Assembly (NCBI GenBank): GCA_035629865.1
Contig: DASPHC010000055.1
Coordinates: forward strand, 134,940 to 198,939
Source of the DNA: Thermoanaerobaculia bacterium
GTDB taxonomy: Bacteria; Acidobacteriota; Thermoanaerobaculia; Gp7-AA8
Length of the DNA stretch: 64,000 nt
Direction: 5' to 3'
Both the position numbers and the translations under genes were made by a program. Shown here piece by piece: positions 416 through 29,597 of the stretch (positions are counted from its first letter, which is position 1; each line of letters begins with the position of its first letter). Under the pieces are notes generated by a model. It did not search any database and was not told the origin of the DNA. It was given only the letters and a program-made list of their open reading frames with translations.

Positions 416-2095
416 ATGACCGCTGTTCGACGGTTGATCACAACTTTGCTGGTGACGCTCGCGGCGACCGTACTGCTCGCGCAGGAGACCACGGCCCCAC
501 GGGCGGCGACCGAGACGGTTACCGCCGAGACGGACCAGGACGCAGCAAATCCGAGAGCGCTGCAGCTCTCGCTCGACCAGGCTGTTCGCACTTCCATCGA
601 ACGGAACCTCGGCGTCCGGCTGCAGGAGTTCGAGTACCAGGAAGCCGGCTGGGGCCTCCGCTCGCAGTACGGCATCTACGACTTTCTCGGCGTCGGCCGG
701 CTGCAGGAAGTGGGCTCTCAGTCGGCGGGAACCTCGTCGATCCAGGCATCGGCGGAACGGAACGTCTCGGCACGCTTCGGCGTGCAGCAGAACCTTCCGA
801 CCGGCGGCAACTACGAGGTTTCGTTCGGGACCAACCGCGACGTCAGCACGGGCGGCGTCTCCACCTTCAGCCCGTTCTACGGCCAGCGCCTCGGGTTCAA
901 CTTCGAGCAGCCGCTGCTCCGTGACTTCGGCATCGACGTCAATCGCCGCGGCATCACCATCGCCCGCAACACTCTGGGCATCAACCACGAGACTTTCCGC
1001 ACCGCCCTGATGGACACCGCGGTCTCGGTCGAGCAGGGGTACCTGAACCTGATCTACGCCCGCCGCCGCGTCGACGTGGTCAAGGAATCGCTCTTCCTGG
1101 CACGCGACCAGGCCCGCATCACCCAGATCCGCATCGACGTCGGCGCGTCCGCGCCGCTGGACATCCTCCAGCCGCGTGTGACCATCGCCACGAGCGAAGA
1201 GCAGCTCATCATCGCCGTCGCCGACGTCCGTGAAGCCGAGGACCAGCTCCGCGGCCTGCTGCACCTCGATCCCGCGGAGTGGGATCGCCCGATCATCCCG
1301 ACCGACGCGATCGAGTACACCCCTGTGGCGATCGACACGGCTGACGCGGTGCGCCGCGCGTACGAGCTGCGGCCCGAGCTCCGCCAGGACCGCCTCGCCA
1401 CGGATACGCGCCGCGTGCAGTACCTCTACGCCCGCAACCAGACCCTCCCGGTGCTCGACCTCGACCTCGACTATGGCCTCTCCGGCTTTGCCGGCACGCG
1501 CCGCGCAGGCGGCGTGGTCGAACGGATCCCGTATGGACGCGGACTGAGCAACATCGCCGAAATGGACTTTCCGGGCTGGACGATCGGCTTCAACGTTGGC
1601 GTGCCGCTCACGAACATCGGTCCGCGCGCCGAGGCGCGCCGTGCGGAGCTCGACCTTCGCCAGTCCGAGCTGACGCAGGAGCAGACCCGCCAGAACGTCG
1701 CCCTCGACGTGCGCGGCGCCGCACGCGACGTCGACACTGCTGCCCGCTCCATCACCGCCACCCGCGCCGCGCGCGATGCGGCCGAGCGGAACGTCGAGGC
1801 GGAGCGCCGCCGCTACGAGAACGGCATGACCACGAACTTCCAGGTGCTGGAAGTGCAGCAGCAGCTCTCCGACGCCCGCATCCGCGAGCTGCAGGCGCTG
1901 GTCGGTTACAACCAGGCGGTGGCCCGTTACCACCGCGCGGTCGGCGACGTCCTCGACGTTCGCGGCATCAGCGTCGACATCCCCGAGCTCCCGGAAGAAC
2001 CGCGTATCTTCAGCAATCTGGATCGGTACAATTGGCTGAACTACGGAAGCCGGGTCGATCTGGAGGAGCAGCCGAATGACGACGGGAAACCTTGA
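416..2095 (+). CDS. TolC-family outer membrane efflux protein
   Basis: Signal peptide LLVTLAATVLLAQE. Two OEP repeats with conserved LSLDQAV and SIERNLGV motifs. The ORF is about 560 aa. Confidence 0.8.
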   Translation: MTAVRRLITTLLVTLAATVLLAQETTAPRAATETVTAETDQDAANPRALQLSLDQAVRTSIERNLGVRLQEFEYQEAGWGLRSQYGIYDFLGVGRLQEVGSQSAGTSSIQASAERNVSARFGVQQNLPTGGNYEVSFGTNRDVSTGGVSTFSPFYGQRLGFNFEQPLLRDFGIDVNRRGITIARNTLGINHETFRTALMDTAVSVEQGYLNLIYARRRVDVVKESLFLARDQARITQIRIDVGASAPLDILQPRVTIATSEEQLIIAVADVREAEDQLRGLLHLDPAEWDRPIIPTDAIEYTPVAIDTADAVRRAYELRPELRQDRLATDTRRVQYLYARNQTLPVLDLDLDYGLSGFAGTRRAGGVVERIPYGRGLSNIAEMDFPGWTIGFNVGVPLTNIGPRAEARRAELDLRQSELTQEQTRQNVALDVRGAARDVDTAARSITATRAARDAAERNVEAERRRYENGMTTNFQVLEVQQQLSDARIRELQALVGYNQAVARYHRAVGDVLDVRGISVDIPELPEEPRIFSNLDRYNWLNYGSRVDLEEQPNDDGKP

Positions 2096-2840
2096 GTCTC
2101 CGGGCGCAGGCGCGCCTGTCCAACCGCCGAAGAAGAACGTGTTCGCCAGAATCGCGGGGGTGCTGTTTTCCCCCGCGGAAACGTTTGACGATATCGCCCG
2201 CCGGCCGGACATCATCGGGCCGCTGCTGATCATTCTCGCCATCGGATACGTCACGACGTTCCTGGTCATGCCGCATCTCGATTTCGAGGCGTTGGCAATG
2301 CAGCAGGCCGAAGCGATGAGGAAGCAGAATCCCAACATGGGCGAAGGCGACGTCGAGCGGGTCGCCAGCATGACCAAGACATGGGGCCGGGCGATGGGCT
2401 TCGTCGGTCCGGTGCTCGGGGTGTTCTGGTACCTCATCGTCGCGGCCGTCCTTCTGGGTGCGTCCCGTGCGATGGGAGGGGCAGGAGACTTCAAACAGGC
2501 GCTGTCCACGACGCTCTACGCCTGGATGCCGCTGGTGCTTTACGGCATCATCGTCACGGTGATCGTCATGGCGAAGGGAATGGTCGACCCTTCGCAGATG
2601 GCGACCGTGGTGAAGTCGAATCCGGCGTTTCTGACGGATATGAAGGAGCAGCCGATTCTTTTCTCGCTCCTCTCCTCGTTCGACATTTTCACGATCTGGA
2701 CGATCATCCTGATGATCTTCGGCTTCTCCGCCTTCTCGAAGTTTTCGCGGACGAAATCGGCCGCGATCGTGGTCTCTTTGTGGTTGGTGATCATCGTCGT
2801 CAAGCTTGGGTTCGCCGCTCTGGCGGCCTCGAGAGCCTAG
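2076..2840 (+). CDS. Yip1-domain integral membrane protein
   Basis: N-terminal FSPAETF...IARRP motif of the Yip1/DUF1282 family, followed by five hydrophobic helices. The start overlaps the TolC stop. Confidence 0.6.
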
Positions 2841-2850
2841 AACGGAACCT

Positions 2851-3546
2851 ATGAGCGCAATGCCCGATACCCAGCCGGCCCACCTGATCGAGATGCACGA
2901 ATTGACGCGCGTCTACGACCTGGGCCCGCAGCAGATCTTCGCCCTTCGCGGCGTGAACCTGATCATCGAGCCGGGGGAGTATGTCGCCATCATGGGACCC
3001 TCCGGCTCGGGCAAGTCGACGTTGATGAACGTCATCGGCTGCCTCGACACGCCGACGTCGGGGTCGTATCTGCTCGACGGCGTGCCGGTGGAGACGCTCA
3101 ACGACGACGAGCTGGCCGCGATCCGCAACCGCAAGATCGGCTTCGTCTTCCAGACCTTCAACCTGCTGGCCCGCACGACGGCGCTGCAGAACGTCGAGCT
3201 GCCGCTCGTCTACGCCAAGATCTCCCGCACCGAACGCCGCCAGCTCGCCGAAGAGGCGCTGGTGGCGGTGGGGCTCGGAGACCGCATGAGCCACCAGCCG
3301 AACGAGCTCTCCGGCGGCCAGCGCCAGCGCGTCGCCATCGCCCGCGCGCTGGTGAATAAGCCGTCACTGCTGCTCGCGGACGAGCCGACGGGGAACCTTG
3401 ATTCGCAGACCGGACGGGAGATTCTCGACCTGTTCCAGGAGCTGCACTCGAACGGCAACTCGATCATCATGGTCACGCATGAGGATGATGTGGCGAAGGA
3501 AGCGAAGCGCATCATTCACATCCGCGACGGGAAGGTGAAGGATTAG
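2851..3546 (+). CDS. ABC transporter ATP-binding protein (MacB/LolD-like)
   Basis: Walker [13 protein letters not shown] signature LSGGQRQR and Walker B LLLADEPT are present. Confidence 0.85.
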
Positions 3547-3557
3547 GCAGAGCACGC

Positions 3558-3643
3558 GATAGGACGAATAGGACTGATAGGACCTATAAGACGTATAGGA
3601 CTCCGATCGTCCTATCAGTCCCATAGGTCCTATCGGTCCTATG
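3558..3643. repeat. Intergenic palindromic repeat cluster (ATAGGAC x4-5 facing GTCCTAT x4)
   Basis: Seen directly. Left-half ATAGGAC copies and right-half GTCCTAT copies form a long imperfect hairpin. The same family is at 7914, 11645 and 43597. Confidence 0.7.
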
Positions 3644-3723
3644 ATCTCGACGCGCCTTCTCGAAGTCGGGAATAACACTGTTTGCACCCTTGGCACGCCT
3701 CGCGAAATGCCTTTTCGCGCAGG

Positions 3724-5559
3724 ATGGTTACACCCGCCGTGCTCACCCGAAAATTCAAGTTGTTCGTTGCGCTCGCTTTCGTCTGTCTGACGTCCGCGTC
3801 GACGCTCTCGGCTGCGGAGAAGATGCCGCTGTCGCAGGTCGAGAAGGGGATGAAGGGCTATGGCCTGACTGCCTTCGAGGGGACGAAGCTCGAGAAGTTC
3901 GACGTCGAGATTCTCGGCGTGCTGCACAACATCGGGCCCGGCCAGAACCTGATTCTGGCACATGTCGACCATCCGGTCATCCGCCGTGCGGGGGTCATCG
4001 CCGGCATGTCGGGATCGCCGATCTTCCTCGACGGCAAGGTCATCGGTGCGCTCGCGTACGCTTGGCAGTTCTCCAAGGAACCGGTCGCGGGCATTACCCC
4101 GATCGACGAGATGCTCACGCTCTCTTCCCGCCGGCTCGCGCCGAGCGGGGCCACTCCGGCGGGCGCCGTCCCACGCATGACCGCAACCGAGCTCCTGAGC
4201 GCGGTATCGCGGTCGAAGCCGGAAGAGGCCTTCGACAAGTTCATCAAGAACCTCGCCGCACCGGTCAGCGCCGTCAGCGGAGCCAGGCGGATCTCGATGC
4301 CGATGTCGGTCTCCAGCTTCAGCCCGGAGACCGTCCAGCGCTTCTCGCCTTATTTCGAACAGATGGGCTTCGTCGCCGTGCCGAGCGGTACCGCGACGGC
4401 CTCGGCTTCGACCGGCAGCAAGAGCAAGTTCAGCCCCGGCGATCCGATCGGCGCGGTGCTCCTCACCGGCGATCTGAACGTGGCGGCGACCGGTACGGTG
4501 TCGTGGGTCGACGGAAATAACGTCTACGCCTTCGGCCATCCGTTCCTCGACATGGGGGAGATCAACTTCCCGATGGCGACGTCGGAAATCGTGACGGTGC
4601 TGCCCAGCCTGGCCAGCTCATTCAAGTTCTCCAATACCGGCCCGATCGTCGGCGTCCTGCAGCAGGACCGCGCCGCCGGCATCATGGGCGTTCTCGGCGA
4701 GAAGCCGCAGATGATCCCGGTCGAGGTGACGCTCAACGGCTCCGGCCCCGAGCAGGCCTACAAGGTCAACCTCGTCCGTCACACGACGCTCTCGCCGCTG
4801 ATCCTGGCCATGGTCGCCGACTCGGTGGTCGCCAACGCCCAGCGGGCGGCGGGCGAGCGGACGGTGCTGATGGACGCGGAGATCCAGCTCAAGGGCTTCG
4901 AGCCGATCCGCCTCCGCGAGGGATGGGCCGGCGCGCAGGCGCGCCAGTCGATTCCGCAGTACCTCGCCGTGATCTCCGGCTACATGATGTCGAACGAGTT
5001 CAGCCCGACGGAGATCGAGAGCATCAAGATCCGTCTCCATCACGACGACGAGCTTCGCATTGCCCGCCTCATGGAAGCGTCGCTGGTGATGCCGGACAAG
5101 GGCCGCGTCTCGCCGGGCGACGTCGTCAAGGTGCGCACCGTCCTCAAGCCGTTCCGCGGTGAGTCGTTCGTCGAGACCTTCGACGTCCGGATCCCCGAGG
5201 ACCAGCCGGCCGGGCCGGCGTACCTGCTGGTGGGAAGCGGCTCGGTGATGAACGCCGTCGACTTCACACTCGTGCCGCCCGATCCACGGACGCTCCAGCA
5301 GGTCATCGGCGTCCTGGAGCGCCTCCGCCCGGCGACCGACCTCACCGTCGGTCTCTACTCGACCGGTGAAGGAGCGGTGACCTCCGGCGTGTATCTCCCG
5401 AATCTTCCGCCGTCGATGCAGGCGGTGGTCAGTGCGGACACGTCGAACGGACCGCAGGCGGTGGTGAAGTACCACCCCACCAAGCATGACGCCAAGCCGC
5501 TCGGCTACATCGTCGACGGCGCGCTGAAGATCGACCTCAACGTCAAACCCCAGATCTAG
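3724..5559 (+). CDS. Secreted peptidase S55 (SpoIVB-like) family protein
   Basis: Signal peptide FVALAFVCLTSASTLSA. The GMSGSPIF segment resembles the S55 serine-protease core. The ORF is long with consistent codon bias. Confidence 0.55.
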   Translation: MVTPAVLTRKFKLFVALAFVCLTSASTLSAAEKMPLSQVEKGMKGYGLTAFEGTKLEKFDVEILGVLHNIGPGQNLILAHVDHPVIRRAGVIAGMSGSPIFLDGKVIGALAYAWQFSKEPVAGITPIDEMLTLSSRRLAPSGATPAGAVPRMTATELLSAVSRSKPEEAFDKFIKNLAAPVSAVSGARRISMPMSVSSFSPETVQRFSPYFEQMGFVAVPSGTATASASTGSKSKFSPGDPIGAVLLTGDLNVAATGTVSWVDGNNVYAFGHPFLDMGEINFPMATSEIVTVLPSLASSFKFSNTGPIVGVLQQDRAAGIMGVLGEKPQMIPVEVTLNGSGPEQAYKVNLVRHTTLSPLILAMVADSVVANAQRAAGERTVLMDAEIQLKGFEPIRLREGWAGAQARQSIPQYLAVISGYMMSNEFSPTEIESIKIRLHHDDELRIARLMEASLVMPDKGRVSPGDVVKVRTVLKPFRGESFVETFDVRIPEDQPAGPAYLLVGSGSVMNAVDFTLVPPDPRTLQQVIGVLERLRPATDLTVGLYSTGEGAVTSGVYLPNLPPSMQAVVSADTSNGPQAVVKYHPTKHDAKPLGYIVDGALKIDLNVKPQI

Positions 5560-5560
5560 G

Positions 5561-5715
5561 CATGAGGTACGGGGTACGAGGAATGAGTGAGCACAGGCCT
5601 GCTCCTGCCGACGACCTCGTACCTCGTACCACTTCCGCGACAGCAGAGAGCCTGGAGATGAGTTAGGGTGCCGGTCGGCACCTCGTACCTCATGCCTCGT
5701 ACCGCATACCCCCGC
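5561..5715. repeat. Intergenic inverted repeat (GAGGTACG / CGTACCTC arms)
   Basis: catgaggtacggggtacgagg at the 5' side and cctcgtacctcatgcctcgtacc at the 3' side are reverse complements. Confidence 0.5.
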
Positions 5716-5733
5716 CGTTTTGGAAAGGAAATC

Positions 5734-7905
5734 ATGCGCCGATTCATCATCCTGATCTCGGCTCTCGTCGTTGCTACACACGCGCTCGCCGTCGCGCCGC
5801 AGTTCTGGCGCGTCGGAGCCGCCGAAGAGTTCCTGGCCGGCGAGCTCGAAGGCTTCGCCGTCACCTCGCGCGGAGAGCTGCGTGTCGCGCCGGCGATGAA
5901 GAAAGTCGCCTCCTTCACCGACCCGTTCGTCCTCTCCCAGACGGTTGCGCCGAACGGGGACCGTTTCTTCGGCACCGGCAATGACGGCAAGGTCTACCGC
6001 CTGCGCGGCGAAGAGCTGAAGGTGCTGTTCACCGCGCCGGAGCCGGAGATCTACGCCGTCTCCTTCGCGAACGGAGCCCTGCTCGCCGGCAGCTCGCCGA
6101 ACGGCAAGGTCTATCGCATCGATCCGGAGAGCGGCCAGCAGAGCGTCTTCTTCGAGCCGAAGCAGGCCTACATCTGGGCCATTGAGCCCGCGGGCAGCGA
6201 CGTCCTGGTCGCCACCGGCGTCGAAGGGCAGCTCTTCCGCGTTTCTGCAAAGGGCGAGGGCAAGATCTTCTACGACTCGGCCGACACGCACATCCGCTCG
6301 GTCGCCGTGCGGAAAGACGGGACCATCCTGGCCGGCGGGTCCGGCAAGGGACGCATCTATCAGATCGGCCGCGACGGCGCGGCCATCGCACTGTTCGAAT
6401 CGCCGCTGAACGAGATCACCGCGATCTACGTCGACGCCAACGGCACCGGCTGGGCGGCGGGGGCGAGCAACGTCCTGCCGTCGACCGCGCCGAAGACGCA
6501 GCCGAAGAGCGGCAGCGGCTCGCAACAGCAGCAGGGATCCGGCCAGTCGGGCTCCGGCGAAGCGAAGAAGGAAGGGGAGGCGACTCCGACCGTCGAAGTC
6601 TCGTTCTCCTTCGACGACTCCACCGCCACCGCGGCCTCGCAGGCCGGCTCGGCGGAGATCTATCGCATCGATGCCGACGGCTTCGTCGACACGGTCCGCA
6701 AATTCGAGCGCGAGATGATCTACGGCCTGAGCGGCGGTCCAAACGGCTCCATCCTCGTCGCGACCGGCCCGAACGGCCGCGTCTATGAATTGAGCGGCGG
6801 CGAGGTCGCTCTCGTCGGCGCCGTCCCCGAAAAGCAGGTGGTCTCCATCTCCGGCTCCGGCAACACGGCTCTGATCACCACCACCAACACCGGTGCGGTC
6901 TACCGGATGGAAGGGCGCAGCGCCGCCACCGCGGAGTTCCGCTCGGTGGCGAAGGACGCGGAGCGCTTCTCGCGCTTCGGCAACTATCGGATCGAAGGGC
7001 GCAACATGCCGGCCGGCTCGGTCGCCGTCTCGTTCCGCAGCGGCAACACCCGTACGCCCGACGCGACGTGGAGCAACTGGACCGCTCCGCAGTCGTCGCT
7101 CGAAGGGAACGTCGGCGCTCCCGCCGCGCGGTACATCCAGTGGAAGTTGACGCTGCCGAAGCCGGCCGCCGATGCGTCGGTCGACCACGTCACGGTCGCG
7201 TTCATGAACCGCAACGTGCCGCCGGAGATCGAGGCGGTCGGCGTGCAGGAGCCGGCCGTGGTCTTCATTACTTCGGCCTATCCCTCGGCGCCGCAGGTCG
7301 TGGAGGCGACGAATCCCGACGAGTACGGGATCTTCACGAGTCTCGACAATCCGCGCGAGCGCGCCGTCGCGGAGCAGGGGAAGCGGATGTTCCGCAAGGG
7401 CTTCCGCACCGTCTCCTGGCGCGCCAGCGACGACAACGGCGACACCATCCGCTACACCCTCTCGTTCCGCCGGAAGGGGAGCGAGCAGTGGCTGCGCCTC
7501 CGCGAGAACATCGAAGAGACGCAGATGAACTTCGACACCTCCCAGCTTCCGGACGGTCTCTACGAGCTGCGCCTCGTCGCCAGCGACGCCTCGGACAATC
7601 CGGAGATGCCGCTGACGGATACACGGGACGGGGTCGAGTTCCAAGTCGACAACACCGCGCCGAAGATTGCCGTCGCCACGAACGGCAGCGACGTGACGGT
7701 GCGGATCACGGATGACGTCTCGCCGATCGGCCGCGTCGAATACTCGGCCGACGCGGAGAAGTGGATCCGCATCCTCCCGGTCGACGGCATCGCCGACTCG
7801 CGCGACGAGACGTTCCGCCTCGACCGCAAGAGCGTGGACGGCAAGTTCGTGGTGGTCCGGGCGGTCGACGCGCAGTACAACGTGACCACCGAGTCGGTAC
7901 GGTAG
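5734..7905 (+). CDS. Secreted beta-propeller protein (two-component-regulator-propeller-like repeats plus Y_Y_Y/Ig-like C-terminal domains), no kinase or receiver domain
   Basis: RBS plus signal peptide RRFIILISALVVATHALA. The N-terminal region has repeated GKVYRL, GKVYRI, GRIYQI and GRVYEL blades. A Gly/Ser/Gln-rich linker follows. The C-terminus resembles Y_Y_Y domains (TVSWRASDDNGD, YELRLVASDASDN). Confidence 0.6.
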   Translation: MRRFIILISALVVATHALAVAPQFWRVGAAEEFLAGELEGFAVTSRGELRVAPAMKKVASFTDPFVLSQTVAPNGDRFFGTGNDGKVYRLRGEELKVLFTAPEPEIYAVSFANGALLAGSSPNGKVYRIDPESGQQSVFFEPKQAYIWAIEPAGSDVLVATGVEGQLFRVSAKGEGKIFYDSADTHIRSVAVRKDGTILAGGSGKGRIYQIGRDGAAIALFESPLNEITAIYVDANGTGWAAGASNVLPSTAPKTQPKSGSGSQQQQGSGQSGSGEAKKEGEATPTVEVSFSFDDSTATAASQAGSAEIYRIDADGFVDTVRKFEREMIYGLSGGPNGSILVATGPNGRVYELSGGEVALVGAVPEKQVVSISGSGNTALITTTNTGAVYRMEGRSAATAEFRSVAKDAERFSRFGNYRIEGRNMPAGSVAVSFRSGNTRTPDATWSNWTAPQSSLEGNVGAPAARYIQWKLTLPKPAADASVDHVTVAFMNRNVPPEIEAVGVQEPAVVFITSAYPSAPQVVEATNPDEYGIFTSLDNPRERAVAEQGKRMFRKGFRTVSWRASDDNGDTIRYTLSFRRKGSEQWLRLRENIEETQMNFDTSQLPDGLYELRLVASDASDNPEMPLTDTRDGVEFQVDNTAPKIAVATNGSDVTVRITDDVSPIGRVEYSADAEKWIRILPVDGIADSRDETFRLDRKSVDGKFVVVRAVDAQYNVTTESVR

Positions 7906-8042: not shown

Positions 8043-9683
8043 GTGGTGAGACTTCGTCCGCTCGTCCTGCCGCTGCTGCTTCTCTGCCTCGCCTGCGGCG
8101 GACCGGGCGAGAAACCGGTGGCCGATACTGCTGCGCCGCCTCCGGTCGTGGACGACCAGCCGCGGGACGGCGGGACGCTCTACCGCCGGCTCGACACTGA
8201 CATCGCCACCCTCAACCCCGTCGTCTCGACCAGCCGCTCCGACCGTCTGGTCGCGAACCTCCTGTTCACCCCGCTGATTTACATCGACCGCGACCTGCAG
8301 CCGATCCCCGGCCTGGCCGACTCCTGGGAGATCTCCGACGACGGGCTGCTGTACACCTTCGACCTCAACCCCAAAGCGACGTTTTCCGACGGCAGGCCTG
8401 TCCGGCCGCGCGACGTCATTTTCACGCTCGAGAAGATCCTCGATCCGAAATCGGAGGCGGTGCAGATCACCGGCTCCTTCGACCTGCTCGACGTGGCCCG
8501 CACCCGCGTCGTGGACGAGGACACCGTCGAGATCGCGTTCAAGCAGGCGCTCGCCACGCAACTCATCAAGTTCAATGACGTCATCATCGTCCCGGAGCAT
8601 GTCTATGCCCCGGGCAACTTCCGGAAGGACTACAACGACCGCGCCGTCGGCAGCGGCCCGTACCGCCTGGTGCGATGGGTGCCGGGGAAAGAAGTGGTCG
8701 TCGAGCGCCGCGCCGATTACTGGGGGAAGCGGCCTTACATCCAGACCGTCGTCTTCAAGGTGATCGGCGACCATGGCACCGCGTTCAACGCGCTCAAGCG
8801 GGGGGAGCTCGACGAGAGCATCGTCCCCTCGGACACCTGGTGGCGCGAGCGCAACAACCCGGAAGTGACCAAGAAGATCGAGTTCCAGCGCTTCTACACG
8901 CGGAACTACAACTTCATCGCCTGGAACAACCGCAACCCGCTCCTGAGCGACAAGCGCGTACGGCGCGCGCTGGCCATGAGCATCCCGATCGAGAGCATCA
9001 TCAAGGACATCTTCCACGACACCGCGCGCGCCATGACCGGCCACTTCACGCCGGACGAGTGGGCGTACAACCCCACCGTCCCGGCCATCCGTCACGACCT
9101 CGACGGGGCACGGAAACTTCTCGCCGCGGCCGGCTTTGTGGACAGCAACGGTGACGGTGTGGTCGAGAAGAACGGCCGCCCGTTCAAAATCTCGATCGTG
9201 ATCATCGCCGGCAGTTCGACCGCCCAGCAGATCGCGCAGATGGTCCAGGCGGAGCTGAAGAAAGTAGGCGTGCAGCTCGACATCGCCCTGATGGACGGCG
9301 CGATGGCCATCACCCGCATCCTGGCCGGCAACTACGAAGCCGCGTACCTGTCGTGGGACCTCGATCCCGATCCCGATCCGTACATCCTCTTCCACTCCTC
9401 GCAGATCCCGCCGCGCGGCCAGAACGTCGTCTACTACACGAACCCCGAGGCCGACCGGCTCATCGACGCGGCCCGGCGCGAGCTCGACGCCGGCAAGCGG
9501 AAAGACCTCTACTGGAGGCTCCACGAAGTGCTTTCCGAGGACCAGCCGTACGCCTGGATCGTGCAGGTGTCGGCAAAATGGGCCATGAGCAAGCGCGTGC
9601 ACGGGGTGGTGCCGAGCCGCGGCTTCGGCCTCTTCAACTGGTACCCCGCCGAGAACGACTGGTGGATCGCGCCGGAGCGATGA
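8043..9683 (+). CDS. ABC transporter substrate-binding protein, family 5 (peptide/nickel type), lipoprotein
   Basis: GTG start. Lipobox LLLCLACGG. SBP_bac_5 architecture with YRLVRWVPGKEVV and a C-terminal AWIVQ motif. Confidence 0.85.
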   Translation: MVRLRPLVLPLLLLCLACGGPGEKPVADTAAPPPVVDDQPRDGGTLYRRLDTDIATLNPVVSTSRSDRLVANLLFTPLIYIDRDLQPIPGLADSWEISDDGLLYTFDLNPKATFSDGRPVRPRDVIFTLEKILDPKSEAVQITGSFDLLDVARTRVVDEDTVEIAFKQALATQLIKFNDVIIVPEHVYAPGNFRKDYNDRAVGSGPYRLVRWVPGKEVVVERRADYWGKRPYIQTVVFKVIGDHGTAFNALKRGELDESIVPSDTWWRERNNPEVTKKIEFQRFYTRNYNFIAWNNRNPLLSDKRVRRALAMSIPIESIIKDIFHDTARAMTGHFTPDEWAYNPTVPAIRHDLDGARKLLAAAGFVDSNGDGVVEKNGRPFKISIVIIAGSSTAQQIAQMVQAELKKVGVQLDIALMDGAMAITRILAGNYEAAYLSWDLDPDPDPYILFHSSQIPPRGQNVVYYTNPEADRLIDAARRELDAGKRKDLYWRLHEVLSEDQPYAWIVQVSAKWAMSKRVHGVVPSRGFGLFNWYPAENDWWIAPER

Positions 9684-22388: not shown

Positions 22389-24818
22389 CTACGTCTCCAC
22401 GTGTAAAAACATGTACAGCGCCGCCAGTGCAAACAGGATGTTCGCGCTCCACGCCGAGAGCAGCGGCGGCAGGTTCCCCACCTCGCCGAACTTCGTGAAG
22501 ATTCCGAAGATCGTCCAGTAGACGATTCCCAGGACCAGTGCGAGGCCGACGCCGTACAGCGCGCCCCGTTTGCCCATCCGGAAGGCGAACGGCATCGCGA
22601 TGAGGGCCATGACCAGGCAGATCGCCGGCCACGAAGTCTTCTCGTACAGCTTCGCGGCGAGGTTGTCGGCGCCATACCCGGAGGCGCGGAGGGTGTTCAC
22701 GTAGCGCCGCAGTTGCGCGTACGTCATCTGCTCGGGCGCCTTGACCTCGGTGGCGAAATCCTCCGGCGTCTCTTTGTAGAAGAGCGGCAACGGCTTGTCG
22801 ATCACCGAGAAAGTCGAGCTGCCGTCGTCGCGGAACGAGCGCATCCAGCCGTCCTCGAACGCCCACGCCTCGCCGTTCCAGGTCGCGCGGTGGGCGTAGA
22901 CACGCCGCGTCATCCGCCACTCCGTCGGATGGAACTCGTATACCTGCACCTGGGTCAGCCGCTTCTGGTCGCGGTTGTAGCCGAGGAAGTTGATGATGTA
23001 GCGCCCCTTGCCGAGGTACCAGAGCTTCTGCTGCGCCTCGGCGGCGATGGCCGGTTTCCCGTCGATCCTTCGCTTCAACTCGCTGACCCGGCTGGATGAG
23101 TACGGAAGGACGAAGTCGAGATTGAGGTACGCCACGATGCTGAGCAGCGCCGCCACGGCGATGATCGGCGCGCCGATGCGGTAGAGCGAGACCCCGCTCG
23201 ACTTGATCGCCGTCACCTCGTTGTTCTTCGACATCATCGCGAACGTGACCAGCGTGGCCACGAGCACCGAGATCGGCAGCGTCCAGTTCAGGACGCCGAA
23301 GATGTGGAAGCGGTAGTAGGTGAGCAGCGTCGACGCGGCCACGCCGTTTTCGCGGGCGTCCTTCGCCGTGTCGGTGTAGTCGATGATTACGAAGAGCGCC
23401 GCGACCGAAAACAGGACCAGCACCAGCACTTTCAGGAACTCCCGGAGGATGTAGCGGTCGAGGATGTTCGGGAAAGTGATGTCGAGCCGGTTCAGCAGCG
23501 CCCGCTCGTCCGAGGCGGCAGAAGGGGAGCGACGGGCGACCTTTCGCCCGAGCCATTCGGCCACTCGCCGGAAAACGCCGCCTTCCGCCCGGCCGCCGAC
23601 CATGTCCCGGTTCGCGCGGCCGAGGAAGTAGATGCCGGCCGCGAGGAGTATCAGGTTCGCCCCCCACATGCCGAGCCACGTCGGGATCTTCCCGTTGATG
23701 GCCAGTTGCTCGCCGTTGTTGAACATCAGGTAGTAGACGACGATGATCGCAATACTTAAAGAGAAACCTGAGCTTTTGCCGCCGCGGCGGTTGGTGATGC
23801 CGAGCGGCAGCGCGAGCACGCCGAAGGCGATGCAGGCGAACGGGATGGCGAACTTCTTATGGATCTCGACCCGGGCGATGTTCCGGTTGATCCGGTCGCT
23901 GTCGCCCTTGCCGCGGCTGAGGTGGCGCTCCTGGTCCAGCAGCTCGCGCAAGTTCATTTCACGGAACGACTTGGCCAGCGTCCTGGCGTCGAAGGCCGTA
24001 TTGGTCGTCGGCATCAGGATACGCTGCGACTCGTTCCTGGTGTGGTCGTAGCGGTCGGGCCGCCGTGAGTCCCACACGTGGGTTTCGGCGCCTGTCAGGT
24101 TCATCCAGATGTTTTTGGAGCCATCGGCGGCCTGGATGACCGACAGATTGCCGCCCTCGGCGGCGATGATCCGCTGTCCGCCGCCTTGCTGCGACAGCGC
24201 CGCGACGTCGTCTTCCTCCGGCTCGGCCATGTTCTCGCTCATCTGCTTCGGCGTCGTCGCGTCGCGCGATTCGTCGCTGCGGGTGTCGGAAACGAACACG
24301 CCTTTCCAGTTCCCGGTGGCCGGGTCAACCTGGTCGACGTAGATCATCAGCTCTTCGTACTTGTCGTAGAAGACCCGCGGCTTGACGGCCTGCTCGGCGG
24401 CGGAGGTCGTGAGCTCGATCCGGAACGTCTGGAGCTGCTGATTGCCTTTCGGCAGCACCTCGTTCACCAGGTAGAGGTTGAGGAGGAACATCAGCACGCT
24501 GAAGAAGAAGACCGGGCGGTAGATGGTGCGCGTCGACATGCCGAGAGCGCGCATGGCGACGACTTCAGAGTCCGAGGAGAGCCGGCCGACCGCGATCAGG
24601 ATTCCGAACAGCAGGGACATCGGCAGGGTCAGCACGATGATGTGCGGAAGCGAATACAGAAGCAGGCGGCCAACAGCGGCGCCCGGCAGCGACTGGCGGA
24701 TGATCAGGCCCGCCATGTCGAAGAGGTTCTGCATCAGGATGAGGGTCGTGTAGAACAGGAGCCCCAGGAACGTGGGAGCGACCATCTCCTTGAAGATGTA
24801 GCGCGTGAGGATGCTCAT
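22389..24818 (-). CDS. Fused LptF/LptG-type LPS export permease (two YjgP/YjgQ modules in one polypeptide)
   Basis: Two sets of transmembrane segments, each followed by a periplasmic beta-jellyroll region. Both halves carry the RYILREF/RYIFKEM YjgP start motif. Confidence 0.8.
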   Translation of the reverse strand: MSILTRYIFKEMVAPTFLGLLFYTTLILMQNLFDMAGLIIRQSLPGAAVGRLLLYSLPHIIVLTLPMSLLFGILIAVGRLSSDSEVVAMRALGMSTRTIYRPVFFFSVLMFLLNLYLVNEVLPKGNQQLQTFRIELTTSAAEQAVKPRVFYDKYEELMIYVDQVDPATGNWKGVFVSDTRSDESRDATTPKQMSENMAEPEEDDVAALSQQGGGQRIIAAEGGNLSVIQAADGSKNIWMNLTGAETHVWDSRRPDRYDHTRNESQRILMPTTNTAFDARTLAKSFREMNLRELLDQERHLSRGKGDSDRINRNIARVEIHKKFAIPFACIAFGVLALPLGITNRRGGKSSGFSLSIAIIVVYYLMFNNGEQLAINGKIPTWLGMWGANLILLAAGIYFLGRANRDMVGGRAEGGVFRRVAEWLGRKVARRSPSAASDERALLNRLDITFPNILDRYILREFLKVLVLVLFSVAALFVIIDYTDTAKDARENGVAASTLLTYYRFHIFGVLNWTLPISVLVATLVTFAMMSKNNEVTAIKSSGVSLYRIGAPIIAVAALLSIVAYLNLDFVLPYSSSRVSELKRRIDGKPAIAAEAQQKLWYLGKGRYIINFLGYNRDQKRLTQVQVYEFHPTEWRMTRRVYAHRATWNGEAWAFEDGWMRSFRDDGSSTFSVIDKPLPLFYKETPEDFATEVKAPEQMTYAQLRRYVNTLRASGYGADNLAAKLYEKTSWPAICLVMALIAMPFAFRMGKRGALYGVGLALVLGIVYWTIFGIFTKFGEVGNLPPLLSAWSANILFALAALYMFLHVET

Positions 24819-24966: not shown

Positions 24967-25410
24967 TCAGCGTCCGCGCTGTGCAGCGATCCTCGCCTCG
25001 CGTGCGCGTTGCAGCGCGAGCTGCCATCCTGCGCGTGATGCCTCGGGCAGTACGCCGATCGTCACGTCGACGGCTCTCTTTTGCCCATTCCGGATGATGT
25101 GAAACGTCATCCTGCTGCCGGGCTTCTGCGCGGCCAGGAACAGCAGCACGTCGAGATCGTCGGCAAAACGAAGCGATGCGCCGCCGACGGCCGTAATCAG
25201 GTCGCCCCCGCGGATGCCGGCGCTGTCGGCCGGGCCTCCAGGCGTCGTGCGCTCCACGAACAGAAACGGCTCGGACGCCCTGGTCCGATGCGGCCGGACG
25301 CTCATTCCGAACCACGGCTGCTGCGGCTCGGTGCGCTTCTCCGCACCGCGTAGGTCTCCGCTGCCGGTCAAGATCACGATGAGGAGCCCGAGAACGCCGA
25401 TCCGTTTCAT
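24967..25410 (-). CDS. Secreted PDZ-domain protein
   Basis: Signal peptide MKRIGVLGLLIVILTGSGDLRGA. PDZ core GGPADSAGIRGGDLITAVGG. ATGA overlap with the upstream gene. Confidence 0.6.
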   Translation of the reverse strand: MKRIGVLGLLIVILTGSGDLRGAEKRTEPQQPWFGMSVRPHRTRASEPFLFVERTTPGGPADSAGIRGGDLITAVGGASLRFADDLDVLLFLAAQKPGSRMTFHIIRNGQKRAVDVTIGVLPEASRAGWQLALQRAREARIAAQRGR

Positions 25411-27578
25411 GTCCGTCCTTCTTCTTCCTGTTTCTTTCTCGGCTGGAGATCCACGTTGTGCGTGGAGCCGGGTTGAACGACGACTTCGTGGCAGTCTTCT
25501 CTGGGAGAGCGGCTGCTGGGACAGAGCGTGTAGAGACCGGGCTCCACGTAAATCGCGCCGCCGAACCGGCCGAGCGGCTCAGGAAAGTGGAAGATGTACG
25601 CTGGGGCAACAACCCCACGCGCCGAGACCGACGCGCGATCGCCGAAACGGATCAGGCCTCCCTGCCGTGGCAGCTGGATTCGGAGAGGTTCCCGCGTAAT
25701 CGCCGTAGAAAGGACGGTTGCCGGATAATCGTATGTCAGCACGATCATTTGAACGGCCGTCGTGCCGCGACTCAACGGGCGTTCGAAGTAGCCGTTCAGC
25801 CCGGCGACGCCACCCGACCACGAACGGCCGCCGTCGACCGACATCTGGATTGACGCGCCGCTCGCAGGTAAGCCGTCGGGCGTGAGCACATACCCGGAGA
25901 CCAGCACTACAGGAGCGGTTTTCAGTGTCAGCTCGGCGGTTTCATCCTCTTCAATCCGGACGTCCAGGGGCGCCGGCGTGCTCCCGGCCGCGGACTGTGC
26001 GTCGACCTGGTAATCGCCGGCTGACAAACCGACGAGGTCAAACCGGCCGTCGCCGTTCGTCCGCTGCTGGGCAACGATCCGGCCACCGCGGAACAGGTGG
26101 ACGACCGCGGGATCACGTTGGCCGTCGTCACCGATGACCTCCCCGCGGATGCGCCCGCCTGGTAACTGAACCTCAATTTCGTGGAGAGACCCGCGCTGTG
26201 CGTCTTCCGCGATCCGGACAGGAGACGCTTCGATGCGCGCCGGCGCCGCGCCGTGTGGATAAAGGACCGTTACGGCCCACGTGCCGGCGGCAGGCAAAAT
26301 CCCTTCGAACCTCCCCTTTTCATCCGCAGTCATCCGGACGACTCCCGCAGACGGATGAGCGAGGTGGAGGTCCGCCTCGAGAGGGTCGTCGCCGGCGCGC
26401 ACGGCGCCGCGAATCCGCAACGCGTGAATCGCCAGCAGAATCGTCCGGCGGCCCCCCTCGTACAAGTCGATCTCGGTCCGAAGCGCGACCGCGTCGTCAC
26501 CGTCCCGAACCACCACTTCGTACAGGTCGACCCGGAGACCCTCGACCACCACGCGGCCGTCGAGACCAGCCTTAAGCAATGACGTGCGCGGTGGCTCGCC
26601 CGGCAGGAGCGGCGTCACCTCGGTCACTTCCACACGCCACGGCCGCCCCTGCGGGTCAGCCGCCGGCTCGAATACGATGTCGGCCTCGCCGATTGGTGCA
26701 TGCAGAATCGGGAACGGAAGCTTGACCGCCTCGCCGGTCCGGAGCTCGACCTCGGCAATGATGGCCGCCGACCACCCGGACGCCTCCGACACGATGCGGT
26801 AGTGACCGGCGTCGAGGCCGGCGATCTGGAAGAAGCCGCGCTTGTTGGTTTGTGATCCGCGCATCCGGCGTCCGGCCAGGTCATCGCGCCGGCTGTTACC
26901 CTGGAACTGCAGCGGGATCAGCGTCACAGAAGCACCCGCGAGCGGCTTCTTCTCCGCGTTCTGAACCCACCCGATGATGCTCGCACCCGGCCGTAACGCT
27001 GCCGGCTCGAGGACTCGCAGGCCCTGTGCGCCGGCGACGACGTCCCAGTAGTAAACGGCAGAAAACCCTGGGACTTCGAGACGGAGATCGAAGGTGACAC
27101 CGGCCGGTACGGCGCAGTGCCAACGCGTGCCGTCGAGGCTGCAACTGGTGGCGCTCTCGGGCATCGGTACAGCTGAGGCGAGCACGGAGACAATCCCCTT
27201 CACTCCCCGCAGCTTCGTTCCGCGCGGTGCCTCCAGCGTACTCTCGGCTGCCGCCGCCGCATACGCCGTCAGAGTCAGTCCCGACTCGTCATCAGCCGTC
27301 CAGCGGCGGGTCTCGCTCCAGCAGTCCGCTTTGCGAAGCGAGATCGACCACTCTTGTGTCTCGGCGAGCCGGAGGCTGTACTCATTGCGCGCCGGGTTTG
27401 TCGGAATGGTGACCGGCGTACCCTGGTCGGGAATCGCGATGAGCTCCGCACCTGCCAGACATTCACCGGCGGCCGGCGCGACCTCGATGTGAATCTTCAC
27501 GTCGGCGCGCGCAGGCATGATCACAACGCCGCTGCTGATCAGCAGCACCGCCGGCCACTGGCGGATCAGGCTTTTCAT
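25407..27578 (-). CDS. Secreted multi-domain carboxypeptidase-regulatory-like (CarboxypepD_reg) protein
   Basis: Signal peptide MKSLIRQWPAVLLISSGVVIMPARA. At least four repeats of the G.V..DG.P..GA.V.L......T..DG.F.L.GL.AG.Y motif. Confidence 0.65.
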   Translation of the reverse strand: MKSLIRQWPAVLLISSGVVIMPARADVKIHIEVAPAAGECLAGAELIAIPDQGTPVTIPTNPARNEYSLRLAETQEWSISLRKADCWSETRRWTADDESGLTLTAYAAAAAESTLEAPRGTKLRGVKGIVSVLASAVPMPESATSCSLDGTRWHCAVPAGVTFDLRLEVPGFSAVYYWDVVAGAQGLRVLEPAALRPGASIIGWVQNAEKKPLAGASVTLIPLQFQGNSRRDDLAGRRMRGSQTNKRGFFQIAGLDAGHYRIVSEASGWSAAIIAEVELRTGEAVKLPFPILHAPIGEADIVFEPAADPQGRPWRVEVTEVTPLLPGEPPRTSLLKAGLDGRVVVEGLRVDLYEVVVRDGDDAVALRTEIDLYEGGRRTILLAIHALRIRGAVRAGDDPLEADLHLAHPSAGVVRMTADEKGRFEGILPAAGTWAVTVLYPHGAAPARIEASPVRIAEDAQRGSLHEIEVQLPGGRIRGEVIGDDGQRDPAVVHLFRGGRIVAQQRTNGDGRFDLVGLSAGDYQVDAQSAAGSTPAPLDVRIEEDETAELTLKTAPVVLVSGYVLTPDGLPASGASIQMSVDGGRSWSGGVAGLNGYFERPLSRGTTAVQMIVLTYDYPATVLSTAITREPLRIQLPRQGGLIRFGDRASVSARGVVAPAYIFHFPEPLGRFGGAIYVEPGLYTLCPSSRSPREDCHEVVVQPGSTHNVDLQPRKKQEEEGRT

Positions 27579-27583
27579 GGCGG

Positions 27584-27832
27584 TCAGATGTCGTAGCAAT
27601 AGGCAGACTGCCGGCACCAACAGCCCTTCCGGCCATCACACATGCCTTGGCAGAACAAAGATCTCGTCCACGAGATCATCCCGTCACATGGCGGGTTGTT
27701 GCAGGCCAGCATGATGTTGCAGGCCGCGTAGTCTTCGCCTCTGACGCAAGCCCAGTACTCACACTCTGCAGATACCGGAAGTGCGGCAACAAGAAGGACG
27801 GCCAGCACGAAAAGAACCCGGACGAGTCTCAT
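27584..27832 (-). CDS. Small secreted cysteine-rich peptide (12 Cys in a 60-aa mature region)
   Basis: Signal peptide MRLVRVLFVLAVLLVAALPVSA. Mature ECEYWACVRGEDYAACNIMLACNNPPCDGMISWTRSLFCQGMCDGRKGCWCRQSAYCYDI. Lies 5 nt upstream of the CarboxypepD_reg gene. Confidence 0.55.
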   Translation of the reverse strand: MRLVRVLFVLAVLLVAALPVSAECEYWACVRGEDYAACNIMLACNNPPCDGMISWTRSLFCQGMCDGRKGCWCRQSAYCYDI

Positions 27833-27894
27833 GGACGTTACCTTTCTTTCTTTCTTTCGGTACCGCCATCATACCCGCGCTCAGGCTATGTGTG

Positions 27895-28725
27895 CTATTG
27901 CTCCGCTTCCAGCCGGCGCAGCAGCTCCCGCACCGCCTCGATCACTTCGCTCTTCTCCACGTTCGGCTTCTTGAACGCCAGGTTGAGGGTGAACGGGAGC
28001 GCTTTGTCTTTGAGAGCGAAGACGTAGTTTTTGGGGCGGCCGGCTTTCGATTCCGGTTTGGTGGAGGTCTGCTTGCGCAGGTCGTCGCGGGAAAGCTCGC
28101 CGGCGGCGTAGGCGCGGACGAACTGCTCCATCGCCTCTTCGGAGCCGGCGCGGGCGACCTGGACGAGGACGCTCTTGTTCGCGATTCCGGCTTCCCGGCA
28201 CATCGCCCGGATCCGGTCCGGGATGTCGTTGATGAGCAGCGTCTCGGTGACTGTCGTCCGGGACTTGCCGATGACCTGGGAGATCTTCTCGTGGGTGTAG
28301 CCGAACTTCTGCTGCAGGATGTACAGCCCTTCCGCCTCTTCGAACGGCGTCAGGTCTTTCCTCTGGATGTTCTCGATGAGGGCGATCTCGAGCTGCTCGC
28401 GGTCGTCGACGTCGAGCTCGATGGCCGGGATCTCATCGAGGCCGGCCATGGTGGCGGCGCGGTAGCGGCGCTCGCCGGAGATGATCTGGTAGCGGTTCGG
28501 CCCGATCTGGCGGACCAGGATCGGCTCCAGCACGCCCTTGTCGCGGACGCTGGAGGCCAGCTCTTCGATATTGCCGAGCTGGGTGCGCGGCTGATTGGCG
28601 TTTGGCTCGATGAACTGGAGCGGCAGCATCGAGCCGATGTGCCGGCCGGAGCGGCGGGTCAGCTCGTCGACATAGTGCGAGTCGGCGCGCATTACGGAGC
28701 GTTCGGGAAGGCCACGCTTAGCCAT
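27895..28725 (-). CDS. parB: Chromosome partitioning protein ParB
   Basis: ParB box GERRYRAA and HTH region. Confidence 0.9.
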   Translation of the reverse strand: MAKRGLPERSVMRADSHYVDELTRRSGRHIGSMLPLQFIEPNANQPRTQLGNIEELASSVRDKGVLEPILVRQIGPNRYQIISGERRYRAATMAGLDEIPAIELDVDDREQLEIALIENIQRKDLTPFEEAEGLYILQQKFGYTHEKISQVIGKSRTTVTETLLINDIPDRIRAMCREAGIANKSVLVQVARAGSEEAMEQFVRAYAAGELSRDDLRKQTSTKPESKAGRPKNYVFALKDKALPFTLNLAFKKPNVEKSEVIEAVRELLRRLEAEQ

Positions 28726-28754
28726 GGGACGAGGTCCTCAGAACGAGAGATGAG

Positions 28755-28838
28755 AGATGAGAGATGAGCGATGAACGGAGAGCCGCTGAGCGTTCATCGC
28801 TCATCTCTCCTCGCTCATCTCTCGTACCGCGCAGCATG
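28755..28838. repeat. Palindromic repeat (GAGAGATGAGCGATGA family)
   Basis: gagagatgagagatgagagatgagcgatgaacg faces cgttcatcgctcatctctcctcgctcatctctc. Family copies at 56224 and 63787. Confidence 0.7.
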
Positions 28839-28841
28839 GTC

Positions 28842-29597
28842 CTATACACGGGACAGAAGCTCCTCGGACAGACTGTAGTACTCCATCGCCCCGCTCGATT
28901 TCGGGGCGAACGTGAAGATCGATTCTTTGTAGGCCGGGCTTTCCTCGAGGCGGATCGACTTGGTGATCACGGTATTGAAGACCCGGTCGCCGAAGACGTT
29001 GCCGATGGCCTCGTGGATGTCCTTCGACAGCGTGGTCCGCTTGTCGTGCATGGTGATGACGACGCCGAGGAGCTGCAGATTCGGGTTCGGGCGAGCCTTG
29101 ATCTTCTCGATCGTCTCGAGGAGGTCGTCCGTCCCTTCCAGCGCAAAGTACGACGACTGGATCGGCACCAGGACGTGCGTCGAGGCCACCAGCGCGTTCA
29201 CCGTGATCATGCCGAGGGTCGGCGGCGTGTCGATGAAGACGTAGTCGTACTCGTTGGCGGTCTCTTTCATCCGGTCCTTGAGGCGGAACGGACCGTCCAT
29301 GTCTCCGATGAGCTTCGACTCGAGCTTGGCCAGGGCGATCTTGGATGGCGCGACGAAGAGGTTCGGCACCGGCGTCGGCACGATGACCTCGGCCAGCTCC
29401 ATCTCCTCGCTCACCATGACGTCGTACATCGACCGCGTGATGGCGCGTGCGTCGACGTAGCTCATCGTCGAGTTTGCCTGCGGATCGAGGTCGATCAGCA
29501 GCGTTTTGAGGCCCTTGTTTGCGACCGCGGCGGAGAGGTTGATGGCGGTGGTGGTCTTTCCGACACCGCCTTTCTGGTTGGCGACAGTGATGATCAT
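28842..29597 (-). CDS. parA: Chromosome partitioning ATPase ParA/Soj
   Basis: Deviant Walker A KGGVGKTT and full ParA layout. Confidence 0.95.
   Translation of the reverse strand: MIITVANQKGGVGKTTTAINLSAAVANKGLKTLLIDLDPQANSTMSYVDARAITRSMYDVMVSEEMELAEVIVPTPVPNLFVAPSKIALAKLESKLIGDMDGPFRLKDRMKETANEYDYVFIDTPPTLGMITVNALVASTHVLVPIQSSYFALEGTDDLLETIEKIKARPNPNLQLLGVVITMHDKRTTLSKDIHEAIGNVFGDRVFNTVITKSIRLEESPAYKESIFTFAPKSSGAMEYYSLSEELLSRV

Follow-up and report, generated by a model that had tools for sequence, protein, structure and literature searches.

This report concerns a compact cassette of three genes on the minus strand of a 64,000-nucleotide stretch of DNA from a Thermoanaerobaculia bacterium of the phylum Acidobacteriota (assembly GCA_035629865.1, contig DASPHC010000055.1, positions 134,940 to 198,939), which in its full length is called the window. 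In the order in which they would be transcribed, the genes encode the precursor of a cysteine-rich mini-protein, a large exported protein composed of β-sandwich domains, and a stand-alone exported PDZ protein. An earlier note, made from the sequence alone, had singled these genes out as a candidate for a new extracytoplasmic system, and we have followed this up by a computational structure and distribution analysis. The features on which the argument depends are listed below, in window coordinates.

27841-27846, minus strand: putative Shine-Dalgarno-like GAAAGG, 8 nt 5' of the peptide ATG, from reading of the sequence.
27584-27832 (stop codon included), minus strand: gene for the Cys-rich mini-protein precursor, 82 aa, from the list of open reading frames (ORFs) and the sequence, with homologues in which the Cys are aligned.
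27767-27832, minus strand: predicted Sec signal peptide, 22 aa, MRLVRVLFVLAVLLVAALPVSA, recognised by eye from its Arg-rich n-region, its hydrophobic core and a VSA ahead of the cleavage site, without lipobox.
27587-27766, minus strand: mature mini-protein, 60 aa, with 10 Cys, a net charge of -2 and the C-terminal end ...YCYDI.
27579-27583, minus strand: 5-nt spacer separating the stop codon of the peptide gene from the start codon of the large gene.
25407-27578, minus strand: gene for the large exported protein, 723 aa from its ATG (MKSLIRQW), with a signal peptide, about eight transthyretin-like/CarboxypepD_reg β-sandwich domains and 6 Cys.
25407-25410, minus strand: ATGA start/stop overlap between the large gene and the PDZ gene, the same 4-nt overlap being present in three other loci (L003, L013 and L015).
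24967-25410, minus strand: gene for the stand-alone exported PDZ protein, 147 aa (Pfam PDZ_2, E 2e-9).
25303-25317, minus strand: PDZ loop PWFGM (residues 32-36), presumed to bind carboxylates, of the form x-hydrophobic-G-hydrophobic and aligned in eight PDZ proteins.

The three ORFs are real genes in a tightly packed cassette of Sec-exported proteins, which is probably translationally coupled. The coordinates bear out the packing that had been described, namely a 5-nt gap followed by an ATGA overlap, with the qualification that the listing program extends the large ORF to a TTG at 27620, so that our count of 723 aa is made from the ATG of MKSLIRQW. The signal peptides proposed for all three products are likewise apparent by eye as Sec-like N-termini, each with a K/R n-region, then a hydrophobic core, and with small residues ahead of predicted cleavage sites that fall between VSA and ECEY in the peptide, ARA and DVK in the large protein, and RGA and EK in the PDZ protein. 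A lipobox ([LVI][ASTVI][GAS]C) is absent from all three—VSA is followed by E and only then by C in the peptide, and the other two have no Cys near the cut—which excludes lipoproteins. The lengths given earlier for the precursor and its mature part, 82 and 60 aa, are correct; the 12 Cys ascribed to the latter are in fact 10. When the small ORFs of the window were filtered for a signal-peptide-like N-terminus and at least six Cys making up at least 8% of residues, a single one of 366 passed, the 82-aa peptide ORF, and it is therefore more than a chance reading frame.

The core of the cassette is a conserved two-gene module, in which a mini-protein gene is followed by a large β-sandwich gene, and to which the PDZ gene is an accessory third member. 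We assembled 34 distinct loci from a homology search with the large protein, GTDB genomes and metagenome contigs, together with the window, L001, L007 and L036; the metagenome loci were retrieved with a sub-alignment around an RGFFQI motif. Six hits come from genomes, four of them in Thermoanaerobaculia (including Candidatus Multivoradales), one in Gemmatimonadales and one unclassified. Directly upstream of the large gene, an automated filter for small Cys-rich ORFs that bear a signal peptide gave a hit in 23 of 33 loci, and manual reading raised this to about 30 by adding L009 (12 Cys), L012, the contig-truncated L016, L024 and L027, and the short forms in L003 and L006. Elsewhere in the 218 kb covered by the loci, the same filter gave five hits, three of which are extra genuine peptide copies (downstream in L005, the third tandem copy in L025, and L026 8085-8381). 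Loci without a clear peptide are L019, where the gene is apparently frameshifted, L028, which has none, and L014, which lacks upstream sequence. In 26 of the 28 loci in which a heuristic recognised a signal-peptide-like start of the large gene, the peptide stop lies within 40 nt of this start or overlaps it; these gaps are approximate, because the heuristic took the earliest such start. Neither a scan of viral contigs nor a tblastn search of PLSDB plasmids found the module. Co-occurrence of peptide, CarboxypepD_reg and PDZ genes, which had been put forward as a check, is thus confirmed for the large protein across some 30 loci, and for PDZ in two clades. A dedicated binding partner, one of the roles suggested earlier, is the most plausible reading.

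Several loci carry variations on this layout. In L025, three tandem paralogous Cys-rich peptide genes (69-332, 424-711 and 803-1087) precede a single large gene. In L026, at the end of the contig and 2.4 kb downstream of the cassette, a second small Cys-rich ORF (8085-8381) begins with a signal peptide, and a further module may start here. L012 has a DsbA/Thioredoxin_4 gene (3532-4500) between two paralogous large genes (1207-3516 and 4314-6833), and upstream of the first is a Cys-rich peptide with a poly-Gly tract. The large gene of L013 (4551-8191) is split by an inserted 353-aa ORF (5875-6936), transposase-like by appearance; both flanking genes, that for the Cys-rich peptide on the upstream side and that for the PDZ protein on the downstream side, are intact. 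In L019, the signal peptide and the Cys-rich part of the peptide gene lie in different frames (3100-3380), and the large gene is followed by a gene for an M14 zinc carboxypeptidase (5803-7695), a single case.

The peptide of the window belongs to a small family of its own. A search of 5.8 billion protein clusters returned only the peptide itself and one protein 72% identical to it (P0002); when 1.84 billion representatives were searched exhaustively with a profile, P0013 joined them, and a further profile search brought in P0015 and P0016. All 10 Cys align in four of these five members, and all five end in C-[YM]-[DE]-[IV]. P0015 lacks both Cys22 and Cys27, a joint loss that fits a mutual disulfide bond between them. 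P0002 sits in a syntenic locus (L001) with the gene order miaB-like gene, BFN nuclease, parA, parB, peptide, large protein, and comparison of its gene with that of the window gives 0.19 nonsynonymous (dN) and 1.24 synonymous (dS) substitutions per site, a dN/dS of 0.15 that indicates purifying selection on the reading frame. The doubt raised in the earlier note, that the ORF might be absent from relatives or have poor coding statistics, is answered by this family of five and by its dN/dS, which together rule out a spurious ORF. In all five members the next gene downstream of the peptide gene encodes a large-protein homologue, and this holds across different genomic contexts; L007, for example, has a two-component system in place of parAB on the upstream side, and the large-protein homologue is still directly 3' of the peptide. 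When the window (24967-29597) is compared with L001 (3827-6995), the cassette genes show a dS of 0.92-1.24 as against 0.27-0.36 for the adjoining parA and parB, and a dN/dS of 0.15-0.23. The higher divergence of the cassette may reflect allelic replacement, an old polymorphism or weak codon constraint. The window peptide matches nothing in Pfam or NCBIfam and has no significant sequence match in the PDB, where the knottin MCoTI-II comes up at a nonsignificant E of 2.2.

Across the loci the peptides are hypervariable: at least three or four types fail to align with one another, their Cys spacing differs, and none is matched by a Pfam or NCBIfam model. They nevertheless share several global properties. 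First, the number of Cys is even in 24 of 28 peptides, which, together with the DsbA-like gene within the L012 cassette, supports a disulfide-bonded state. Second, 26 of the 28 have a net negative charge and none a positive one (mean -4.6). Third, they are rich in aromatic residues (on average 13% W/Y/F). Fourth, the last Cys lies exactly three residues from the C terminus in 17 of 28, giving tails such as CYDI, CMDV, CYFV, CLYI, CYQV, CLEV, CYLA, CRWA, CHWA, CVWA, CTYY, CYYN and CSYM, among others. In the type ending in C-x-[WF]-A, the peptides of L008, L021, L027 and L030 run on for 20-40 residues beyond that motif, an extension that could be a C-terminal propeptide. Poly-glycine tracts of 6-10 G occur before or inside the Cys-rich part in L006, L011, L012, L023 and L026.

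The large protein is an array of β-sandwiches. Three stretches of it match Pfam CarboxypepD_reg (PF13620) above the gathering threshold (E 1.4e-26), and an AlphaFold model built with five homologues (mean predicted local distance difference test, pLDDT, 79.8) is an all-β chain of about eight tandem sandwich domains, so that the earlier count of at least four carboxypeptidase-regulatory-like domains is upheld. A fold search with this model gave matches at the level of single domains only, to transthyretin-like, CnaB or pilin domains. The residues invariant across the five homologues are G, P, W, F, a Cys pair, two Arg and one Asp, and neither these, nor Pfam, nor the model reveal a recognisable catalytic constellation or domain. 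Pairing of the six Cys (positions 40, 86, 146, 155, 686 and 696) is probably intradomain. In comparisons with close relatives, divergence is greatest in the first domain, which is 24-26% identical in L003 and L015, the rest of the protein being about 40% identical. Inspection of the sequence found no LPXTG motif, lipobox or membrane anchor, the C terminus (...DLQPRKKQEEEGRT) being charged and without LPXTG, and a regular-expression search found no CxEQ thioester motif. One weak homologue (P0009) is a fusion of five CarboxypepD_reg domains to a C-terminal PDZ domain; no small gene is called beside it, and we regard it as a hint only.

The assignment of the third product to the PDZ proteins is secure, with PDZ_2, PDZ_6 and PDZ matches and 38 bits against PDZ models (PF13180 / PF17820) with a cutoff of 27, and its nearest solved relatives are the PDZ1 domains of DegP/DegQ (E 8e-10). 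PDZ homologues lie downstream of the large gene in seven other loci (L003, L013, L014, L015, L016, L018 and L024). The hydrophobic-G-hydrophobic loop, which from general knowledge of PDZ domains we take to be the carboxylate-binding loop, aligns in all eight proteins, as PW[FYL]GM in the window, L003 and L015, PGW[ML]G[MF] in L014, L016 and L018, PGYLGF in L024 and GMVGI in L013. When the large proteins are clustered (leaving out L013, whose large gene is split by an insertion), the type of peptide and the presence of PDZ are distributed along the same clades. In clade i (window, L001, L003, L014 and L015) and clade ii (L016-L018, L024, L031, L033 and L034), PDZ is present wherever the contig extends far enough. 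Peptides of these clades mostly end in hydrophobic-x-V/I/A, with L003 (YYD) and L034 (HYTG) as exceptions and the L014 sequence missing; the ends found in PDZ-bearing loci include YDI, MDV, YFV (twice) and YQV. In the clade whose peptides end in C-x-[WF]-A, no PDZ gene is found downstream in the members with enough sequence (L004, L005, L008, L019, L020 and L021), yet L013 has a peptide of that type and a PDZ gene. HtrA-type PDZ1 domains are established binders of hydrophobic C termini, and for this reason the PDZ protein plausibly grips the peptide tail.

How does this module compare with known systems? The nearest named class to the peptides is that of the cis-defensins such as xanthusin-1, whose cysteine-stabilised αβ (CS-αβ) fold has 3-4 disulfides and a CXXXC...GXC...CXC framework with a helix, and one class IV member of which has been reported from an unidentified Acidobacteria bacterium (PMC11561630). 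Both are small, disulfide-rich and very variable peptides of soil bacteria. However, the window peptide has 10 Cys, with CQGMC and CWC and without GXC; CXXXC is lost in L015/P0015; the low-confidence peptide model (pLDDT 48) contains strands only and no helix; and the peptides here are anionic. Nor does that paper report a partner gene, the words "operon" and "neighbor" appearing nowhere in its text (PMC11561630). With no GXC, no CXXXC in P0015 and no significant PDB match, we reject membership in the cis-defensins.

The larger proteins are likewise related to known ones by domain rather than by architecture. The best sequence relatives of the PDZ protein are the PDZ1 domains of the HtrA proteins DegP, DegQ and DegS, with which it shares the hydrophobic-G-hydrophobic loop and whose known binding of hydrophobic tails matches peptide ends such as ...YDI, ...YFV and ...YQV. 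Unlike HtrA, it is a stand-alone protein without a protease domain, which within 147 aa means that it can only bind, not cleave; an HtrA/DegP serine protease is excluded, since only the PDZ region matches and scores fall far short of every NCBIfam full-length cutoff. The large protein has the domain fold of the transthyretin-like/CnaB/CarboxypepD_reg arrays—the B repeats of SdrD, Gram-positive pilins, the TIE protein, the GhpA neck, NOMO and the N-terminal extension of SusC—which are also strings of β-sandwiches. It differs from them in having no LPXTG, thioester motif or TonB-dependent barrel, and its matches are to single domains (template-modelling score, TM, ≤0.14). We know of no such array that is paired with a small Cys-rich secreted protein. 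Sortase-anchored pilins and MSCRAMM adhesins are rejected for want of LPXTG and because NCBIfam MSCRAMM hits fall far below cutoff, and a TonB-dependent receptor because Pfam finds no plug or barrel and the AlphaFold model consists of β-sandwich domains only. Bacterial α2-macroglobulins (ECAM) and other thioester proteins are periplasmic multi-β-sandwich proteins that appear among low-ranked Foldseek matches, but the large protein lacks their CxEQ motif, which excludes this identity, is half the size and has no pbpC partner gene. By analogy only, the plant SCR/SP11-SRK pair also combines a hypervariable Cys-rich secreted ligand with a co-evolving partner encoded beside it; it is eukaryotic and without homology, and unlike the receptor kinase SRK the large protein lacks any signalling domain. 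PADLOC gave no hits for the three proteins, and no description of the gene association was found in Pfam, NCBIfam, PADLOC, PDB sequences or the literature (searched for Cys-rich peptides with CarboxypepD_reg, Thermoanaerobaculia and Acidobacteria). By these searches the module is outside known kinds, as the earlier note had supposed; what is new is the gene association and the diversity of the peptides, while the domains of the larger proteins are known folds.

Our preferred interpretation, which we consider about evenly balanced between right and wrong, is that the oxidised mini-protein would be complexed with the rod-like large protein, its tail docked by the PDZ protein in the clade of the window, and that the specificity for a target would reside in the mini-protein. 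After export, the mini-protein would be oxidised to its disulfide-bonded fold and would form a stoichiometric complex with its cognate partner, which may carry, present or receive it. The three residues past the last Cys, here YDI-COOH, would be a free tail serving as a docking handle, captured in this clade by the PDZ protein. The variable mini-protein would be the part that determines specificity, binding some extracytoplasmic target in adhesion, antagonism or recognition, by an action that would be neither catalytic, nor that of a ribosomally synthesised and post-translationally modified peptide (RiPP), nor cationic and membrane-active. Several points weigh against this interpretation. Adjacency and coupling indicate co-expression, not binding. 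About half of the loci lack PDZ, L003 (YYD) and L013 (HWA) have PDZ together with a poorly fitting peptide tail, and the association between PDZ and the peptide C terminus is confounded by phylogeny, being seen in two clades only. Finally, AlphaFold offers no usable fold for the mature peptide even with all five family members (pLDDT 48, predicted template-modelling score 0.26), and we used this model neither for a fold search nor for disulfide pairing.

Among the alternatives, the one that survives best, which we consider possible though unlikely, is that the peptide is a Sec-dependent bacteriocin or defensin-like toxin and that the large protein, with or without PDZ, is its carrier or a sequestering immunity factor in the envelope of the producer. 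Small Cys-rich secreted peptides that are hypervariable, the three tandem copies in L025, a cassette far more diverged than parA/parB at synonymous sites too, as in polymorphic antagonism loci, and a genomic context that varies (L005 adjoins a relaxase) would all be in keeping with it. The charge of the peptides is not, with 26 of 28 negative and none positive, and neither is the CS-αβ motif, which is not conserved and whose helix is missing from the low-confidence model; the anionic window-type family and the lack of this motif led us to abandon the earlier suggestion of a classical defensin or cationic antimicrobial peptide. In addition, the neighbourhoods of the loci show no recurrent gene for an exporter, a membrane immunity protein or lysis, and a soluble immunity protein of 720 aa would be unusual.

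A ligand-receptor pair for self/non-self or kin recognition, with the mini-protein as ligand and the rod protein as its cognate surface partner, seems to us improbable. Peptide types do track the clades of the large protein, but vertical co-inheritance explains this equally well. The N-terminal domain of the large protein is the most diverged in L003 and L015, and dS is elevated relative to the flanks, both of which count in its favour; the dN/dS of 0.15-0.23, however, gives no sign of positive selection in pairwise comparison, neither a membrane anchor nor a signalling domain is present in the large protein, and no regulator is consistently linked to the cassette. It is hardly probable that the mini-protein is a disulfide-stabilised module for binding polysaccharides or surfaces, comparable to hevein or CBM1, on a β-sandwich scaffold of carbohydrate-binding-like fold: the peptides are indeed aromatic- and disulfide-rich, but hypervariability is unexpected for substrate-binding modules, no glycoside hydrolase or lyase recurs nearby, and no carbohydrate-binding module family is matched in Pfam or NCBIfam. 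The last alternative, in which the peptide would be either the precursor of a RiPP or a thiolate metal binder of the periplasm, processed or loaded by its partners, is very improbable. Cys density is high, and the window contains a radical-SAM gene 2.3 kb upstream. The product of that gene, however, has the UPF0004, Radical_SAM and TRAM architecture of a MiaB-type methylthiotransferase and is probably a housekeeping enzyme, and other loci show no linkage between it and the cassette. Moreover, the N terminus of the peptide is a Sec signal and not a leader, neither catalytic residues nor catalytic domains are found in the partners, the peptide types differ in the Cys spacing that a metal site would need to keep, and the even Cys counts and the DsbA gene of L012 point to disulfides. 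The RiPP-like precursor and the processing role for the partners that had been entertained earlier are thus both dropped, because no modifying enzyme is conserved nearby, the only co-conserved neighbours being the large and PDZ proteins, and because neither of these shows any sign of enzymatic activity.

Some further observations concern the surroundings of the cassette. Directly downstream, on the same strand, an 809-aa ORF (22389-24818) contains two LptF_LptG permease stretches (E 5.6e-161), and LptF and LptG are therefore apparently fused in one polypeptide. A consensus scan found a terminator-like hairpin with a T-run within the peptide coding region (27660-27677, minus strand), which is probably due to chance because the number of such sites is close to shuffle expectation. 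Rfam has no match over the whole window.

Disulfide-rich mini-proteins have a central part in eukaryotic defence, venom and recognition, and to our knowledge their bacterial counterparts have barely been charted past a few dozen defensin-like peptides. The significance of the module is that it provides a recurrent gene-linked context—a β-sandwich partner with or without PDZ—for diverse Cys-rich mini-proteins of bacteria in poorly studied soil phyla. Since the large partner is easily detected by sequence and the peptides are not, it is a handle for mining hundreds of peptides that would otherwise be unrecognisable. The module may also yield stable peptide scaffolds or antagonists of narrow spectrum. 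Should its function be mundane, for example that of a structural pair in the envelope, the value would be limited to annotating a new family. At its most far-reaching, and here we are tentative and think it unlikely in this full form, the module could represent a class of extracytoplasmic two-component systems, undescribed so far, of Thermoanaerobaculia, Gemmatimonadota and their relatives, in which the hypervariable, anionic and disulfide-knit mini-protein would be the polymorphic determinant of specificity, either a toxin or a recognition ligand, displayed or delivered by a co-evolving transthyretin-like rod and loaded in some clades by a PDZ chaperone through its C-terminal tail. If true, this would be a bacterial analogue of the eukaryotic pairs of Cys-rich ligand and partner that serve in self/non-self discrimination or defence.

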